In this document: one piece after another, positions 25,900 through 51,549 of the stretch
Layout of the letters: every line of letters begins with the position of its first letter
Numbering within the stretch: the first letter of the stretch is position 1
Notes under the pieces: model-generated
What the model was told of the DNA's origin: nothing
The model's database searches: none
Seen by the model: only the letters and a program-made list of their open reading frames with translations
Assembly (NCBI GenBank): GCA_951406725.2
Contig: OX597829.1
Coordinates: 19,902,001-19,966,000, forward strand
Length of the DNA: 64,000 nucleotides
Source: Octopus vulgaris
Lineage: Eukaryota
Direction of reading: 5' to 3'
Translations under genes and position numbers: made by a program

Positions 25900-26560
25900 A
25901 AATGCTGATACGAATATTATGTACTAAAATCAGAGATCTCGTCTGGTTGCTTATCCACTTCAAACGAATGGAATAGATCCTTTACTTGTAGCCGACGATG
26001 TATAAATAAAAATATTGACGTACTTAACCAGACAGAACTCAGATGACTGTTTACCTCTTCGTAGCTAACTACAACTATATTGTGGGTAGTGAGGTCGCTT
26101 CTTAAACGATTAGCTGGGAGGGAGGGGAACCGTCAAGTTTAATTAAATGAGGTGTAATTACACTTGGAGCCCTTCCTTAATTACTTTCAAGAGAAAAGAC
26201 ATCTATAAAAAAAGAAAGCACTTATAAATAAATATATTACCAAATAAATAAATAAATCTTTTAGAGACCTGTATGCTCGGAATCTGAACATTTTGTTTCC
26301 CGTCATGCAAAGTCTCATCGTAATCGGAGATTACGTCTAATAGCTCTCTGCAAAATCTTTTTATTTTATTTTTATACATATATATATATATTTTGGTTTG
26401 GGTTCCATTTTAGAAGGGACTAGTTATTTAACGCCCTCTGAAGTCGAATTTTTCATCGGTCTATTTTCGTGTGACGGCATTTCACTACTAACGCAGTAAA
26501 TAGCTTTATGTAACAACATTGTCGCTGTTGTGTTTCGCGCGGTTTTGTCGTGTACAATGG
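25900..26560. promoter_or_regulatory. CpG-retaining promoter/5' UTR region of SIVA1, possibly bidirectional
   Basis: Repeat-free, visibly CpG-richer than its surroundings, directly upstream of the SIVA1 ATG; minus-strand donor-like site GAAGAG|GTAAAC at 26055/26054. Confidence 0.55.
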
Positions 26561-26665
26561 GTAAACGTAGCTGCCCGTTTTTTGAACCCCCCATCCAAAA
26601 GAAAATACATGTTGGTGTGAAAGAAGTCGATAATGGTGTTTCTGGGAACATGGAAGGAGTTTATG
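26557..26665 (+). CDS. SIVA1: Apoptosis regulatory protein Siva, coding exon 1
   Basis: ACAATGG start; MGKRSCPFFEPPIQKKIHVGVKEVDNGVSGNMEGVY aligns by eye with human SIVA1 [29 protein letters not shown]..EVF; phase-1 donor G|GTGAGT. Confidence 0.92.
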
Positions 26666-27408
26666 GTGAGTTCTTTAGACTATATATCGCTTAAAATGAC
26701 AACAAATTACAACCATTTTGTTTTTTTAGTGTTCAAAACACCAGACATCGAATATAAACACTAAAAAGAATAATGGTCTGTCAGTACTAATTTTGTTCAT
26801 CAGTTTTATCATATACTACTTGAAACATTGTTAAAAGTCAACTTGTTTACTTTTTTTATCGTGTACATTTATTGTAAATTATCTGTTGATATGCTGCCAT
26901 GTTGTGAGCAGATCTGATGAAAAACGTTCCATGTGACCATCTAATTTTGTTTATTTTTATTTTATTCATTCATACAATCTTTTAATATATATTTTGTTGT
27001 TCATACTCAGTCAACTGTGATCGAACAGACCTCTGATCAAAAGTAATCCACCTGTAATCACTTTTTCTATTACTTTTACTTTTTATGGGTATTTGAAACT
27101 ACGTTGTTTCCAAGTGTGTTCCTAAGGAAATTTGGTTGCTAAGTTCGGACGTCCACGTTCAGACTTTCTCGTTTGTTCGTGGGAAATATAAGTGTTATTT
27201 TTTAACCCAGATCAGGCCAATAATCAAAAGCATTTCAGTCGTGGCCATCTCCTCTTTTTAGAGAATCTTTGGTTACATTGCCTTTATTTAAGACGGACAG
27301 TAGCGATGGCTGTTATTTCTGACAGTTGAAGGACCACTTAAAGCTGTCTTTTAGTTGTTTTGATGTTTAGCCACAGGTAAACCATGACTGAACAGGCCTA
27401 TGATCATC

Positions 27409-27634
27409 CTCGTAGGGAAAACCCATGACAATACTTTAAATACTTTAAATAAAGATGTTTTCACTGAAAACCTACGCATGTGGTGCCCAAAAGGGTTAAA
27501 TTCGTTTGCGCACGCGTCAAACGAATTAAACAATCCTTTTGGGCACCACATGCGTAGATTTTCAGTGAAACCTCTTGAAGCCTATGACAATTTTAAAATT
27601 TATTTAAAGTATTGTCATGGGTTTTCCATACGAG
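27409..27634. mobile_element. Fold-back (hairpin) MITE in SIVA1 intron 1
   Basis: Arms CTCGTA.GGAAAACCCATGACAATACTTTAAATA..TTTCACTGAAAA.CTACGCATGTGGTGCCCAAAAGG..AATTCGTTTG and their reverse complement around a short GC-rich loop. Confidence 0.8.
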
Positions 27635-27720
27635 ATAGTTTTACCGTTTTTTCTTGCATAGATCTAACGGTAGTAGGAGCTAGGTTCAAATGCAACAAAA
27701 AGTGGAATGATCGCCTTTTT

Positions 27721-29230
27721 GGCGGAGGTAAAGATCATGGACCCGCACCCCCTGGGGTTTTTTTTTTTCTTCTACAGGAACACACTATGTCGAGGGCGGA
27801 GATTCCGAATCTGCATTTCAAAATTTAACCCCACCATCACCACCAACTTCTTGAATTTCCACTTTTTGAAAGAAAATTTGGCGGGCGAAATACGTAAAAA
27901 AATACGGAGATTATGATTCTGAAAGAAAAAAAAATTGTCTCCGCCCTATGACACGGAAGTGGCGATGTTTCGCTTGTCGTAGCACAAGTTTCCGTCGATT
28001 TCCGTAAAAAACTTTTTTTTTTTTACATAAGTAATGAGAGCGAAAGAGACTAAGAGGAAGCGATTTTATGACGAGGAAATTTCTCTTTGAAGTCCCCGTG
28101 TGTTTGTTTGATGGGGTGTGGGAGACAGACAGTATGTTGTGTAAGTGAAGTGCTTCTGTTAGTGTGTGCGAAGAGACAGAGAGAGTAATGTGTGAAAGAG
28201 AGAGATAACTGAAATTTTTTACTCGGTGTATGTGTATATGTATGTCTGCATGTATGTGTGTGTGTATGTATCTGTATGTGTGTGTGTATGTATCTATGTG
28301 TGTGTGTGTGTATGTATGTATGGCCGATTCAGTGTTTACAATTTTTACGGAAATCGACGGAAACGTGTGCTACGACAAGCGAAACATCGCCCACGAAGTG
28401 AAATTAAAAGTGTTTTCTCTACAATGTTTCATGAATGTGGAGGATTATAAAATAGCAGACGCAAAAAGTATCTAAACAGAAAACCTGACCTGCTAGAAAC
28501 ACATTTTCAAAATTTTTATACGAATTACCAAAGAAGAAAACATTTCAAAACTTAAACCCATCCCCAATTTCTTCATTTTTCACTTATTTTAGAGATATTT
28601 TTTGGCGAAATACGGAGATGATTCTAAAAAAAATTGTAAAATTCCAATTTTTCAACAACAACAAAAAATAATAAACACTCCCCCTCTCCACCCTATAACA
28701 GAAAGGGAAATTCCCCCATCCCCTTTTTTTCTTTGCCAGAGGGGCAAAGAATGAAAACATGTTTTGGGGTTTTCAAAATCTTCAATTTTCAGTACGCCCC
28801 AACCGGAAATCTGATAAGCTAGTAACAACAGCCAAACCGAGTATCAACTTTCTAAATACGAATTACCAAAAAAAAATTTTAATGTCATTTTGTTGTGTGT
28901 GTGTGAAAAAAATCTAATTTTTACATACCTCTTTTAATCCCAAAAGACCCTCAACCACAACATGGGTTATGTTTATTATTTTTTTTTTTTTTGAAAAATT
29001 GAAATTTTGCAAATTTTTTTTTTCAGAATCATAATCTCCATATTTTTCTATGGATTTCGCCCCCAATTTTTTTTTTAAGTGAAAATTTAAGAAATGGGGG
29101 GTGGGTCTAATTTTGAAATAAATTTAAAAAATTTTTTTTGGCAGGTTCAGAATCTCCGCCATCTATATAGTGTGTTCCCATGAAAAAAAAAATCCTAAAG
29201 GGGGTGCGGTCCATGATCTTTACCTCCGCC
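27721..29230. mobile_element. Long-TIR non-autonomous DNA transposon with GG termini
   Basis: GGCGGAGGTAAAGATCATGGACC.GCACCCC... / ...GGGGTGCGGTCCATGATCTTTACCTCCGCC; inverted similarity extends ~200 nt; no clean TSD seen. Confidence 0.8.
27961..28391. mobile_element. Nested MITE with GG-initiated ~50-bp TIRs
   Basis: GGCGATGTTTCGCTTGTCGTAGCAC..TTTCCGTCGATTTCCGTAAAAA and its reverse complement; near-identical flanks CACGGAAGT / CACGAAGT. Confidence 0.85.
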
Positions 29231-29534
29231 ATATTCCAGAAATATTGATAGGAAATGTTTTCTTTGTCATGGATGTAGAAAAGTTGACAACATCAGAAAG
29301 TAATAGTTCTTTGAAAAATCAAAACTTGAGCTTGGGTACAGAGACAAACAAATAATTTTTGACATTTTCGTTTTCAAGTTTCACGACCTGTTGGTAATTA
29401 CATGTTAATAGTGTGAAAATGTATGTTTGTTGCAATGGAAAAAGAGGGAAAGATTCCACCTGAAAATAAGATTAACAGAGACTGGAGGTTAAAACTTTAA
29501 CAGCTTTACTTCATACTTGAGGATAATGGCCCAG

Positions 29535-30470
29535 CTTGATATGTAGAAAAGGTGTCGCTAGAAACTCCATAAAGTGTACCTGGTGCAAGCTATGGACACA
29601 CAAGATGCAGCAGTATCACTGGAAGACTAACAGAGAAAGTAGTCTTTACATGTGGCAGATGTGCAGGTACATTAAACACCAAGAATGTACAAAAAAAATA
29701 GACTCCCTCAAATGTCAGCGGGGGATCCTTAGAAGTAGTAGACAGTTTCCATTACTTAGGTGACGTTAGTAGTGGAGGAGCTTGTTCCAAAAGCGTAGCT
29801 GTTAGTAACAAAGGGCCTCTCCCTTAGAGTGAAAGGCAGTTTGCATGGTGCCTGTATATGAATGGCTATGCAACATGGTAGCAAGACATGGGTTGTGACT
29901 ACTGAGGATATGCAAAGACTTGAAGGGCATGAAACCAGTACGCTCCGCTGGATTTGTAATATCATATTCACCTGAGTGTAAGTAATTTGAGAGAAAAACT
30001 GGGTATGCTGCCTAGCATTAGATGTAGCATGCAAGAGAGAAGACTGCTGGTATGGCCATGTAATGCATATGAATGAAAATAAGTTGCATCAATAGGTACT
30101 GATTTATAATTGCAGAGGGAACATGTGAAAGGGGTTGACTAAGGAAAACATGAGACGAAGTGGTGAGAAAGGATCTACAGACATTGGGACACAGAGGGGA
30201 TGACAAGATGCCAAGACTCCTGGCAGTTTGCTGTGCTTTAAAAGACGAGTGTGGCCGTTGCTGGTATCGCCTGACTGGCCCCGTGCCAGTGGCATGTAAA
30301 AGCACCCACTACACTCTCGGAGTGGTTGGCGTTAGAAAAGGTATCCAGCTGTAGAAATTCTGCCAGATCAGATTGGAGTCTTGTGCAGCCATCTGGTTCA
30401 CGCCAGACCAGTCAAATCGTCCAACCCATGCTAGCATGGAAAGCAGACGTTAAACGATGATGATGATGTC
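29535..30470 (+). mobile_element. Decayed RTE LINE 3' fragment
   Basis: ICRKGVARNSIKCTWCKLWTHK and downstream similarity to 15700-16430, ending in the RTE tail with (GAT)n. Confidence 0.85.
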
Positions 30471-31417
30471 AAGCTAATTAAAAATGTAGTTGTCCTTGCA
30501 TACAGGTTGTTCTCTGCATCACTCTCCAGCTGAGCATTCCTAACCTTGCGGGCTCGTGGGTGTTGGTGCTGTAAAAAGCACCCAGTAAAGTATTTGGCAT
30601 TAGGAAGGGCATCCAATCTTAGAAACCATGCCAAAACAGATATGGAATGTGCGCAGCTCTTCAGCAGGGCAGTTCCGGTCACACCATCAAACTCATGTCA
30701 GCATGGAAAACATGTTGAATGTTATAAAGACTTGTTACATCAGATTTACAGTATTCTCCAACTATACCCTTAAAAATAAGCAATATAACAGGAGAAATAT
30801 AATGAAAAAGTCCTTAGGGTCTAAGAAAATTTAAAGTCCTTGTCCAGCACTCTATAAAACCTGGGTGGGCCCCTTACCCTCCCCTGCTGCCATTAAGTAG
30901 ATTACTGGAACTTTGGCTACCATGACTAGACCAGGGATGAATACTGGTGTGGTTTCCCCTTCTCCAGGCAGGTGGGATTTGAACTCAGAATATAGAGAGC
31001 TGGACGACATACCATAAAGCATTTCTGCCAATGCATCAATGATTTTACCACTTGCCCACATGCAGAGCAACATAAAATTAAGTGTTTTGCCTCCAGAGCA
31101 CAACATACTGCCTGATCTGGAAATTGAACCTATGATTGCTAGATCATGAGCGTAACACCATAACTACTAGCTCATGCACCTTCACGCTATTGATTACTAA
31201 ATGTCCCCTATAAATGATTGCCAAGTCTTATGTCCATAAGATAAGTCATATCATCCACCAAGAACAAGATGTCATTAGATGAGGAGTGGCTAATTTTTAT
31301 TGTTGCATTCACTTTTTATTCTCTTTTGTTACGAGACCTTTTTTGTTTTTAATCAGCCATCTGCTTCCCCTGTAAATGATTGCCAAGTCTTATATTCTCT
31401 TTCTTTCTTTCTTCCAG

Positions 31418-31618
31418 AAAGAACAAAAATGCTTCTCTTTGCTGGAGCCTTATTGAGCAATCAAGACAAGAACAGCAACTTGGTAAAATCTGCTCCCAGT
31501 GCAAGTGAAAATGACACACCGGATTCTGAAGAAGATACATGTCAACCGAAAATTCTACGAGGGCAATGTCAAATCGATTTCTCAGGGAAACTGATTCCTT
31601 ACAGAAAAGCAAATTGGG
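31418..31618 (+). CDS. SIVA1: Apoptosis regulatory protein Siva, coding exon 2 (201 nt, phase 1-1)
   Basis: Strong acceptor TTCTTTCTTTCTTCCAG; splices in frame to exon 1 giving ..GVYERTKMLLFAGA (human EVFEKTKRLLFLGA) and ILRGQCQIDFSGKLI (human AARGQMLIGPDGRLI). Donor G|GTCAGA is weak, so the 3' boundary is less certain. Confidence 0.88.
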
Positions 31619-31926
31619 GTCAGAGTGTTTCTCAGTAGCATAAAACATGCATAATTTAACTGTGATCTGTGTAAAAAAAAAAATTTTTTTTTTAAAATTT
31701 TAAATACGAAAAAACTTTAATAGTTTTTACCATAGGATAATTGATATACGTGTTGCAAGTGATAATATGTGACATTACCATATCTAGTTCAGGAAACCTC
31801 ACCTCTTGTTTATCTTTTCTTCATCCAACGATAAAATCAATATTTATAATTTAATGATTTTTGTTTTCCATTCTATAATTTACCTTTTATTTATTTATTT
31901 TTCCTTTGCATAGAAAACGTGCCAAA

Positions 31927-32117
31927 TGCTCAGGCTCCAGCTAAGAGAAGCATTTTTGCTCTTTCTGGAGAAAGAGAATATAAGACTTGGCAATAATGTA
32001 GGTGTGTGGGGGGTGGGGTGGACTGATTAAAACAAAAACAAAAAGCGGAAAGATCTCAGTACAAAAGAGAAGAGGAAGTGGATGCAACAATAAAGTTAGC
32101 CATTCCTCATCTAATGA
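31927..32117 (-). repeat. Inverted duplicate of the SIVA1 intron-1/exon-2 junction (31272-31459)
   Basis: Reverse complement reads TCATTAGATGAGGAATGGCTAA..ATTGCCAAGTCTTATATTCTCTTTCTCCAG AAAGAGCAAAAATGCTTCTCTTAGCTGGAGCCTGAGCA; roughly 80% identical by eye. Confidence 0.95.
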
Positions 32118-33004
32118 TATATACTAAAGATCTTTTCAACTCATAATTTAGAAGGAAAAAAATATACTTTAGAATTTATAATTTAGATTGGTTAAATTTT
32201 TCATACATTGATGATTTTAAACTTTTCTTTTTTAGTTATTGTGCTTAAGTTAAAGTTGAAAGACTAATGGGATAAAGAGGTATGGTAATCAAAAATGAGT
32301 AGGTTAATTTCTGTTCTTAATTATGGGTGTGTCATTTAATTAACATGCTGTTGGGAAAAGACATCTCACTATAACAGTTTCATTTCTAAACCCTAAAAAA
32401 AAAAATGTCATTCTTCATTCATATGTAAATAAACTATCATTGTAGTGTGATGGTTCCCAACTCTTCAACAAGTTTCAATTTCAACTTGAAACAGTTTCAT
32501 TTACATTTTTAATCATTCATCCCTGGTAAAGACATATCATGTTGACTCTTTCAAGGCCTTATGCCTTTGTAATATATTGTATAAGAACTCGTCATTATTT
32601 TGTTTGTTTGTTTTGTTTTTTTTTAAATATCTACTACAAGCATTTTATTGCAAATATGAGAATAACAAGTTTTTAATGACAATATGTTTTGCTTCTTTTT
32701 TCAAAACCAATTGTTAAAATGTAATTATAAAAATCTTTTTAATTAATAAACTATTGTTTTTATCTCATGTTTTTACTTTGTAAAGTATTTTAAAACCATA
32801 AAAAAAAAAACACTGCTTGTTTAAATACTAGAACACAGAATCTCAAATTGCCACAACTATTAAACATTTAATAATCGTTGAATGGTTTGACTGGAACTGG
32901 TAAGCTGGAGAGCTGCACCAGGCTCCAGTCATCTGTTTTGGCTTGGTATCTATAACCGGATACTCTTCCTTAACACCAACCACTTTATAGTGGGTATTCT
33001 TTTT

Positions 33005-33280
33005 TTGTGTCACCAGCACAGGTGTCTTTTTCATGTCCCCAGCATAGGTGTCTTTGTCGTGTCTCCAGCACAGATGTTTTTTTTTTGTCCCCAGCACAAG
33101 TGTCTTTTTTGTGTCACCGGCACAAGCATCTTTTACGTGTCCCCGGCACAAGTGTCTTTTTCATGTCCCCCGCACAAGCGTCTTACATGTCCCTGGCATC
33201 AGCGTCATTTTTGTGTTACCAGCACAACATCTTTTATGTGTCACTGGCACAAGTGTCTTTTTTGTGTCACCTGCACAGAT
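33005..33280. repeat. Minisatellite, ~22-27 nt unit (GCACAAGTGTCTTTTTTGTGTCACC), about 11 copies
   Basis: Direct inspection; derived from the GTGCTTTTTACGTGCCACC unit of the adjacent minus-strand RTE tail. Confidence 0.85.
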
Positions 33281-34186: not shown

Positions 34187-34606
34187 ACATTATTTACATT
34201 TGACGGATATTTGTCCTCATCTTGTTTGTTGTTAACACAACATTTTAGCTGATATACCCTCCAGCCTTCATCAGGTGTCTTGGGGAAATTTTGAATCTGG
34301 GTTCTCATTCCTAAGGTATTTTTCGATATTATTATTATTATTGTTGAGGTCACTACTTGGAATCTTGGGGTTAAGAGCGCAAGCTACTGACCCCAAGATT
34401 CCAAGCAGTGACCTGAACAATAATAATAATAACATTGAAAAATACCTTAGGAATGAGAACCCAGGTTTGAAATTTCCCCCAAGACACCTGAAGAAGGCTG
34501 GAGGGTATATCAGCCGAAATGTGTTAACAACAAACAAGATGAGGACAAATATCCATCAAATGTAAATAATGTACATAATTCCTCATCTCTTAAATATAGA
34601 ACTGTA
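34187..34606. mobile_element. Palindromic Penelope-like remnant with decayed hammerhead cores
   Basis: ~185-bp inverted arms (34187-34373 / 34388-34572); GACAC CTGAAGA A GGCTG..CAGCC GAAA..GTGTT at 34483-34525, mirrored on - in the left arm. Confidence 0.7.
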
Positions 34607-49000: not shown

Positions 49001-51549
49001 AGCAGCATGAGAAACTGGTATTAACTAAATGACAAGATACCCAAAAAGTATCAAAACAATATAAAAGACAATATGAGTTTTTGTCAATGGCGTTGGTTTT
49101 AACGTTTAACCATACTGACTTACAAAGAGAGACAGATAGCTAAGCATGTAAATATTTAGAAAGACTGAGGAAGAAGCATAAATACAAATAGTTAGATTGA
49201 TAGATAGATAGGTGGATAAATGAAGAAATGGCTGTGTAGATATATTGATAGACATACAGATATGGAATAAATTCAAATTAATTACAAACGGAGTGTTCTT
49301 GTGAGATAAGTTGTTTATATATCTGATGATGGCTCAATTATCTCTCTGTAGATTAAAAAAAAAATGACGATGATCGTGATATGTGTGTGTGTGTGTGATA
49401 TCACCATCATTTGATGATGTCCACCCCATGCCAGCATGGAACATGGATGCTAAATGAATGATTATCATGATGATGATGATGACTCTCCTGTCTTGGAATA
49501 TTGCATTAATGTAGTGTGACTGTAGAAATACTCCAAGATGCTACTATAACTTGTCATTTGGAGTATGTCATGAATATCTTACTTGGCATATAAAACTTTC
49601 ATCTGATATATTTGGTGTCCAAATATATTAGGTGAATCATTAGGCAATATCCAAGGGAGTATGTTTCCTGTGTATTGTTGCTGTATGATAGATATTGTCT
49701 AAGGGTGAACTGGTTATGTGATCTTAACAAAAAACTGTGACCCCTTACAATTTTTTTAAAGTTTCCAGTCATTTCTTCATAGCATCAAAGATTGACATAG
49801 TCTCAGTTTCTCTTGTTTTTCTTTTTATCTTTATGTCACTTCCTCTCCCTTTTCTCTTTCCTCCCACAATCTTATTCTTTCCTTCTTTCTCTTTTGCATT
49901 TTCATTTCTGCAATCATGAATGTCCTGGCCGCTATCAGCTTTTTAGCTAGTCACTTGGTTGGCATCAGAGCCAAGTGGTCTGTGATTTTTTTTTTTTTTC
50001 ATATCTTTGTTGTTATCTCTATCATTCTGGTTGACATCATAAGTAGATACATGAAGTCACTAGAATATAAAAATCCAACACCGAGCACCTTGCAATGGAT
50101 GGCTCCCTAAGCTTGCACAATCTCACCTTTGAGTATCTATCTATTTGCCAACATACCTATCCATCTACCCAACTTTCTACCTACCAACTTACCTATCCAC
50201 CTATTCAGCTATGCATCTATCTAGCCATCTATTTATATGTCTGTCTCTCTATCTCTCTAAATGTCTGCCTGTCTTTGTCACCTCATCTATCAATATGGTT
50301 GAACATTAAAACCTAAACCAGCAATAAAAAAAAACCCATTGTCTGTTATACTATTCTGATATTTTTTGATATCTTGTGCTTGAGAAGACTTGTCCAGCCA
50401 AGTGAAATCATAGTCATGGCTGATACCAGTGCCACCTGACTGATACCCATGCTGGTGGCACATAAAAAGCACCATTCGAGTACCGGTCGTCACGGAGGCA
50501 GTGACAAGTGATCAATGGATTTGGCAATATACTGTGCTTGTGAAGACCTATCAAGCCAAGTGAGATTGTAGTCATGGTTGATGCCGGTGGCATATAAAAA
50601 GCATTCACTACACTCTTGGAGTGGTTGGCATTAGGAACAGCATCCAGCCATAGAAACCATACCAAATCAGATTGGGAATTGGTGCAGCTCCCCGGCTTAC
50701 CAGCTTCTGGTCAAACCATCCAATCCATGTCAGCATGGAAAATGGACACTAAATGATGATGATGATGATCTTGTCATTTAGTTACCTCGGTGTCTCACAC
50801 TGCTATAAAGTACATTTACTGCTAAGAAGTCATTAGCTAGTCTAACTACATTGTATTATAAACACCAGTACACACACATTTTTTGCTTCATAAGCATGTG
50901 AAAGAGTACACGGTATTTGTTGTAAAATATATCTATTTCTTCAAAACTAGAATATTTACTAGGTGCATGTGTGTGTGTTCATGATATAAAGATGTAATAA
51001 ATTATATAGATATTCTAAAGTATATAAAATAAAAATCTTATGGGAAGTAAAAATGTTTCTAAAAGTAAATCCATAAGTATAACATTAAAATTGGGAGAAA
51101 AAAAATTTTTGTCTTTTTTACTTTATATACTGAAGTCAATTCTTATATAATAAGAATTTTAAATTAAATAACTTTATATAAATCATATATAAACGGGAAA
51201 AGCCTAATAAAAGAAAATAAGGAACAACATTTTTTTTAAATAATGATATAGTACGTTTCTAAATATCACTGCAAATATATATATGAAAGTGGAAACTGGT
51301 CAGATAAGAACAAAAAAACAAAAAAAAAAAAAAAGAAAATGTGAAGACCCTCACCTCAATCAATGTAGAACTCAAGAAGCACCGAAAAGAAGTAAGAAAT
51401 GAAGACAAAAAAAAAAACTCTCATTAAGCAAGAGTGAATGGAGAAGTGAATCAACATGAAAGCCAAGGAAAAAAAAATCCTCAGGACGGAAAACAGAAAT
51501 GGAGGATTTGGTTATAGCTGACTAGATTACTACTAAGACATCAAATATA

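Follow-up and report, generated by a model that had tools for sequence, protein, structure and literature searches.

The junction between intron 1 and exon 2 of the Siva gene of Octopus vulgaris is copied in inverted orientation behind the stop codon of the same gene. The locus was analysed in a stretch of 64,000 nucleotides (the window; contig OX597829.1 of assembly GCA_951406725.2, positions 19,902,001 to 19,966,000), to which all coordinates refer. In the reading we favour, with a probability of roughly 0.55, this inverted duplication arose from the gene itself, is decaying, and sits in the 3'UTR of a Siva gene that is truncated, has two exons and encodes no zinc fingers. A local template switch likely created the inverted copy behind the stop codon, and the copy is likely decaying without selection. 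In unspliced RNA, an imperfect stem of approximately 170 bp is predicted to span the acceptor and the AATAAA at 32089; after splicing, a remnant of approximately 26–33 bp would pair codons 37–47 with the 3'UTR. Some A-to-I editing in the stem and a somewhat slower removal of the single intron would be likely side effects. The gene appears to tolerate the stem, since spliced products are known and the pyrimidine tract has 9 nt left unpaired. An exon-skipping switch was given less weight, since exon 2 is probably the terminal one.

The gene was recognised as Siva, in agreement with the first-pass annotation, by the match of its protein (P0003) to the Pfam family PF05458 (53.9 bits, cut-off 26.2; profile positions 1–96 of 173). 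Searched against the genome, the Siva protein matched at one locus only. Exons 1 and 2 joined in silico gave 109 amino acids identical to P0003 (NCBI: Octopus vulgaris), the exon structure being taken from annotated and predicted proteins. In the databases, the spliced proteins from O. vulgaris, O. bimaculoides (XP_014767881.1), a close relative (P0006) and Argonauta (GAB1604571.1) are 108–109 amino acids long. The reading frame of exon 2 runs to the stop codon, and the donor-like site at 31619 (Table 1) is incompatible with the codons of two relatives, P0002 (W-D) and P0004 from Argonauta (W-N). P0008, which starts in intron sequence, and P0016, which is spliced, share one ending, as expected with exon 2 as the last coding exon. 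Spliced P0006 and the genomic read-through of the window also end alike. Exon 2 is thus likely the last exon, judging from these protein ends. The earlier description of exon 2 as 201 nt long and symmetric requires the donor at 31619, which has five of nine consensus matches and is read through by the database proteins.

A Pfam scan of five proteins, P0006 being outside it, showed in all five that the Siva match ceases at position 96–98 of 173. All nine Siva-like proteins compared end 5–8 residues past a conserved tryptophan, and the Cys-rich half of Siva is absent; P0013–P0015 were outside this comparison, and P0013 ends in CEKCTWG. The differing tails of 5–8 residues may represent read-through into a former intron. 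A profile search among proteins of 45–245 amino acids returned five, none of which was longer at the C-terminus. Exon 2 searched against proteins of 119–2000 amino acids returned P0002 alone, and a blank there is weak evidence. A Cys-rich downstream exon, sought as frames with two CxxC motifs, was not found in 182 kb (the remaining window and 150 kb beyond it); the scan gave two candidates, neither of which matched Pfam and one of which was a repeat (28 hits). A genome search with the family was insensitive for Siva, as it missed exon 2 itself. By these comparisons, the C-terminal Cys-rich (B-box-like/zinc-finger) domains of Siva are absent in the octopod protein.

Short Siva proteins (approximately 110 amino acids or less, without Pfam positions 99–173) were found in the octopods O. 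vulgaris, O. bimaculoides and Argonauta and in more distant relatives (P0002–P0006, P0008, P0012–P0017), and the loss of the zinc fingers is possibly a lineage-wide domain loss. Proteins of 52–74% identity are equally short and the arms of the inverted repeat are only approximately 10% substituted, so the truncation is likely much older than the duplication, which we rejected as the cause of the zinc-finger loss. P0007, P0009, P0010 and P0011 were dropped as repetitive or unrelated proteins. A metagenome scan with P0003 gave 123 pattern matches, none of them close; with P0017, no close locus was found and two of 95 matches were weak (L005, L006). Positions 916–1053 of the metagenome contig L005 matched residues 8–53 of P0017 weakly (37%, E = 9e-6 among candidates) and, from this alignment, possibly encode a distant Siva. 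The ESM Atlas held no entry at or above 0.9, and the model was of low confidence and uninformative. Among the top results of literature searches, no paper on cephalopod Siva was found.

The inverted duplication extends across the acceptor, as had been noted, and resolved into four ungapped blocks (I6, I10, I14, I16) in an inverted-repeat scan of the window. The share of exon 2 in arm 1 is 33 nt, or 42 nt if a 4-nt gap is crossed, and the spacer between the arms measured 481 nt, close to the 470 nt estimated before. Within the window, BLAST aligned the arms with 74% identity over 199 columns including gaps (E = 3e-32). A gapped alignment of 174 columns contained 157 Watson-Crick pairs, nine G-U pairs, two A-C and six other mismatches, besides 10 gaps. 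The predicted minimum free energy of 31250–32150, a check suggested by the first-pass annotation, was −299.3 kcal/mol compared with −190.4 ± 8.1 kcal/mol for 20 shuffled sequences (z = −13.5). The duplex was more stable for the plus strand (−228 kcal/mol) than for the opposite strand (−206 kcal/mol).

The arms had been described as not resembling transposable elements. This was borne out in the 2.8-Gb genome, where queries with the whole stretch and with its intron part found nothing beyond the two arms (very common words were skipped), and no additional copy occurred in a 264-kb sample. An origin as a transposon-derived inverted repeat (a SINE pair or MITE ends) was rejected, since the arms are single-copy and arm 1 contains conserved Siva codons. 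Arm 2 was also rejected as a functional duplicate exon on the minus strand, where it reads RAKMLLLAGA followed by a stop. No Rfam family was found at the gathering threshold in 26000–33000. Two large runs from other studies, neither of them the possible source run, contained 79 and 76 of 86 sampled words, which counts against an assembly artefact.

Inverted pairs are frequent locally: 26 alignments of at least 100 nt, with the arms within 1.5 kb, were found in the 264 kb, and five of them, the Siva pair included, had no other copy in that sample. The sole oddity of the Siva pair among these is that it copies a splice junction. Intron 1 contains a further inverted pair (27720–27931 and 29014–29231; 75% identity, 1.1 kb apart), likewise without another copy in the sample and with G-U to A-C mismatches of 8:8; the pair may represent the termini of an inserted element. 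The other three local pairs without an extra copy in the sample were 49032–50377, L008 2173–3334 and L023 404–822. A 28-nt direct repeat in intron 1 (31204–31231 and 31366–31393, 27 of 28 positions identical) has its second copy within arm 1 and may mark a local spot of template switching. In 33000–33280, a 26-nt unit is repeated in tandem approximately 10 times. A near-perfect palindrome of 386 nt with a 4-nt centre lies 3' of the gene (34187–34572) and is likely a foldback or MITE-like element.

Table 1. Features of the Siva locus and its inverted repeat (window coordinates).
Feature	Position	Strand	Remarks
Siva exon 1, coding part	26557..26665	+	36 codons and 1 nt; donor GT at 26666; spliced translation equals P0003 exactly
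Intron 1, sole intron within the CDS	26666..31417	+	4752 nt, GT..AG; spliced proteins P0003, P0005, P0006
Arm 1	31269..31450	+	Final 149 nt of intron 1, acceptor AG included, and initial 33 nt of exon 2
Pyrimidine bulge, 9 nt	31404..31412	+	No partner in arm 2; ends 3 nt before AG; mean P paired 0.06 (predicted)
Acceptor AG	31416..31417	+	Partner 31966–31965 in predicted pre-mRNA fold
Exon 2, coding part	31418..31638	+	Stop TAG at 31636–31638; 109-aa protein
Candidate editing site A31423	31423	+	Faces C31959 (A-C mismatch); A>G would give Thr39Ala
Weak donor-like site, GGG/GTCAGA	31619..31624	+	5/9 consensus matches; database proteins read through
Likely 3'UTR of terminal exon	31639..32130	+	Inferred; further AATAAA at 32428 and 32745
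Acceptor-like AG in loop	31912..31913	+	16/20 upstream pyrimidines; 18 nt before arm 2; junction with exon 1 would encode 62 aa
Arm 2, antisense copy of arm 1	31932..32120	+	Reaches 31927 across a gap
AATAAA in arm 2	32089..32094	+	Predicted paired with intron 1 (31295–31301) before splicing, unpaired after

Arm 2 starts approximately 290 nt past the stop codon and lies 514–703 nt past the acceptor AG, which is at odds with its former description as intronic. Its place behind the stop follows from the frame of exon 2, the ends of all nine proteins and the donor that is impossible in two relatives. Neither AATAAA nor ATTAAA occurs between the stop codon and 32026; ATTAAA at 32026 and AATAAA at 32089 both lie within arm 2, and further AATAAA motifs follow at 32428 and 32745. 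Twenty of the 24 sequencing runs listed contained the stretch. Seventeen of these were small (7–135 million letters, six studies) and contained 66–71 of 86 sampled words each; they were ranked by share and typed by guess (13 'RNA?', four 'DNA?'; none recorded as RNA). Of the 86 words, the 201-nt cassette should contribute 17.5, or 36.6 together with a downstream exon. A transcript that stops short of arm 2 should contain 48.5, and one whose terminal exon reaches to approximately 32110–32130 should contain 68–70. The ceiling at 71 words fits a loss of the intron-1 part, and these shares could be mimicked by polymorphism, or by a retained intron end combined with a shorter 3' end. Given its position behind the stop codon and the word counts of the 17 small runs, arm 2 likely lies within the 3'UTR.

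In the predicted pre-mRNA fold, the block 31413–31450 was the best paired (36 of 38 nt; P = 0.92), and A31416 paired with U31966 with P = 1.0. The stem segments had a mean pairing probability of 0.84–0.96, in contrast to the pyrimidine bulge at 31404–31412. Pairing had been described as best across the pyrimidine tract, the AG and the exon start; this holds for the AG and the exon start, but not for the bulged pyrimidines. A hairpin that hides the acceptor is predicted, whereas its use as a Siva isoform switch by skipping of exon 2 is not supported, as the stop codon lies within exon 2. The AATAAA at 32089–32094 was paired with intron 1 with P = 0.97–1.0 in the pre-mRNA and P = 0.0 in the spliced model. 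In the spliced model, a helix from 31424 to approximately 31450 persisted between the CDS and the 3'UTR (approximately 26–33 bp), with positions 31418–31422 at P of approximately 0.25 and A31425–31429 at approximately 1.0. Editing there would have coding consequences: A>G at A31426 would give Lys40Glu, at A31427 Lys40Arg and at A31429 Met41Val.

The stem is plausibly an ADAR substrate, going by the modelled fold. Masking or editing of the AG could lead to intron retention or to the use of another acceptor, but not to a skip that keeps the frame, since there is no known downstream exon. The stem does not block splicing, as spliced proteins are on record. After exon 1, an open frame of 26 codons continues from 31914, next to the acceptor-like AG in the loop, and a similar acceptor-like site occurs at 32235, which indicates that such sites arise by chance in T-rich DNA.

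The arms differ by 17 substitutions and 10 gaps (approximately 10% plus gaps). The transition mismatches between them comprised nine G-U against two A-C (two-sided p = 0.065; 4:1 in the gap-free blocks), and one of 19 control inverted pairs was skewed in the opposite direction (p = 0.031). The earlier claim that several differences are G-U compatible thus amounts to an excess that is not significant. We rejected the skew as proof of selection, given its p-value and because a sense-strand mutation bias of A>G and C>T gives the same sign. The frame of P0002 reads through the intron arm of a relative, and this protein could therefore be used to polarise the differences, for arm 1 only and as a peptide. 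At the 17 substituted sites, the relative agreed with arm 1 at 10 and with arm 2 at two, and five were ambiguous, so both arms changed independently. Including the exon start, the relative kept 105 of 112 non-degenerate positions of arm 1 and differed at seven. Divergence between the arms exceeds that between arm 1 and the relative (approximately 6%), so the duplication is likely older than the split from the species of P0002; arm 2 should then occur in congeners, as far as this protein comparison goes. The comparison used one pair of arms, which by design cannot reveal compensatory double changes. The 9:2 skew, the more stable plus-strand duplex and the tightly paired block at the exon start are weak hints of selection on the RNA, none of them decisive.

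Several regulatory readings were weighed against decay, and jointly (control of processing, a recoding partner, an alternative last exon) they are possible, at clearly less than even odds. In one of them, which we consider unlikely, the stem would be a selected, splice-gated processing switch that masks the sole acceptor and the proximal AATAAA together. Splicing would then remove the intronic partner and free the AATAAA, and how far the intron is retained, how much mRNA is made and how long its 3'UTR is would depend on opening of the stem by a helicase, editing or temperature. The predicted release of the hexamer upon splicing, the fully paired AG and the G-U skew of 9:2 are consistent with such a switch, but alternative AATAAA motifs are present at 32428 and 32745, the signal at 32089 is itself putative, copying a T-rich intron in antisense would be expected to yield an A-rich hexamer, and the arms carry 10 gaps. 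It has a precedent in the acceptor-masking stems near poly(A) signals of Drosophila Atrophin and Nmnat (excerpt of PMC2724269). Somewhat more doubtful is that arm 2 was kept as an editing-complementary sequence, which would recode the start of exon 2 (Thr39Ala at 31423, Lys40Glu/Arg, Met41Val) before and after splicing. The block 31413–31450, the best paired of the stem, mostly survives splicing in the model, and A31423 lies opposite a C. A-C mismatches are favoured ADAR targets. However, Thr39 was invariant in six of six aligned proteins, and the exonic block is possibly better kept merely because arm 1 codes there. In squid, editing is enriched in 3'UTRs and in the CDS, according to an excerpt of PMC9068888, which adds to the case for recoding. 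The word 'SIVA' was absent from one supplementary file each of PMC8382921, PMC4384741 and PMC9068888, and editing-site tables are possibly placed elsewhere in these papers. The two ideas could be combined: a self-duplicated stem would lock the sole acceptor and the AATAAA that came with the copy, ADAR editing or temperature would open it, and the residual helix would recode codons 39–41, resulting in an editing-sensitive gate of mRNA output. The chances of this combination seem low to us.

The nearest workable form of the earlier skipping idea is an alternative last exon. Masking of the acceptor at 31417, or its AG-to-IG editing, would divert splicing to the AG at 31913 in the loop and yield a Siva of 62 amino acids with exon 1 only. 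An acceptor-like site with 16 of 20 pyrimidines and the open frame of 26 codons are in place, but a similar site occurs at 32235, the tail of 26 amino acids had no Pfam match, and homology searches returned no such protein (exon 1 alone being too short a query); we regard this outcome as very unlikely. Skipping proper, with arm 2 intronic and controlling the 201-nt exon 2 to give a Siva-2-like isoform, is barely credible. It would draw on the phase-1 GT at 31619, on the W-C-E ending of P0008 and P0012, whose codons would permit GTGAG at this site, and on the mammalian Siva-2, which was correctly cited before as lacking exon 2 of four (excerpt of PMC6171514). Against it, all proteins found end within exon 2, and neither P0002 nor P0004 can have the weak donor. 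The remaining window and a further 150 kb yielded no Cys-rich exon 3, and the word shares fit no cassette. There is also a small chance that the repeat is inert, with no hairpin in vivo, if the transcript ends before or within arm 2 or if intron 1 has been spliced out by the time arm 2 is transcribed. Arm 2 lies 514–703 nt past the AG, splicing may proceed co-transcriptionally, and the ATTAAA at 32026 could shorten arm 2; yet last introns are usually removed in concert with 3'-end formation, the first AATAAA or ATTAAA behind the stop codon is the one at 32026, and an end before arm 2 predicts 48.5 words instead of the 66–71 seen.

As it appears now, the locus illustrates neatly how local inverted duplication can bring an antisense copy of a splice junction into what is likely the 3'UTR of the same gene. 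With its named sites (A31416, A31423, A31425–31429, AATAAA 32089), the locus could serve to test whether editing of a chance duplex in cephalopods alters splicing or the choice of 3' end. Were the stem both conserved and regulatory, it would represent a new coleoid route to editing- or temperature-sensitive control of mRNA processing. Every relative found has a Siva that lacks the C-terminal Cys-rich domains, which is relevant to the question of which Siva functions persist when the zinc fingers are lost. Word searches of the literature returned no report of this locus, nor of any gene with its own acceptor copied into the 3'UTR, and such searches leave absence unproven.

The octopod protein belongs to the same family as mammalian SIVA1, exons 1 and 2 matching Pfam Siva positions 1–96, so that the N-terminal and central homology is present and the C-terminal Cys-rich domains are absent. 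Mammalian SIVA1 has four exons, and its isoform Siva-2 lacks exon 2 (excerpt of PMC6171514), whereas the octopod protein of 108–109 amino acids stops within exon 2. This leaves no room for cassette skipping of exon 2: neither a donor in use nor a coding exon further downstream was found, and in nine of nine proteins compared the stop was in exon 2. In Drosophila Atrophin and Nmnat, long-range stems in the pre-mRNA mask or loop out acceptors (excerpt of Raker et al. 2009, PMC2724269). The octopus locus resembles these in that a complementary segment hundreds of nucleotides away covers a strong acceptor (predicted; 31413–31450, P = 0.92), with a terminal exon and a poly(A) signal nearby. In the same excerpt, the Drosophila boxes are conserved across Drosophila genomes and were tested by mutation and rescue; the octopus stem, a predicted one, differs as a gapped duplicate of approximately 180 nt of the junction itself behind the stop codon of a two-exon gene. 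At a paired pyrimidine tract, ADAR2 blocks U2AF65, as described in an excerpt of a review (PMC10790352).

Edits in squid are ubiquitous in 3'UTRs and in introns overlapping repeats (excerpt of PMC9068888). Compared with substrates of the GRIA2 type, the octopus stem is alike in that a non-coding arm pairs with the CDS and an A-C mismatch falls at a codon. In the GRIA2 type, the partner is an editing-complementary sequence of a recoding site. The octopus partner differs in that it likely lies in the 3'UTR and part of the helix would survive splicing, the site being a candidate from the sequence. Inverted Alu pairs are inverted-repeat ADAR substrates, and the octopus stem, a predicted duplex, is unlike these in consisting of the gene's own single-copy sequence rather than a repeat family and in including CDS and an acceptor. 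It is like them as a predicted long, imperfect intramolecular duplex (157 Watson-Crick and nine G-U pairs in 174 columns; z = −13.5) in what is probably one transcription unit, with one arm likely in the 3'UTR.
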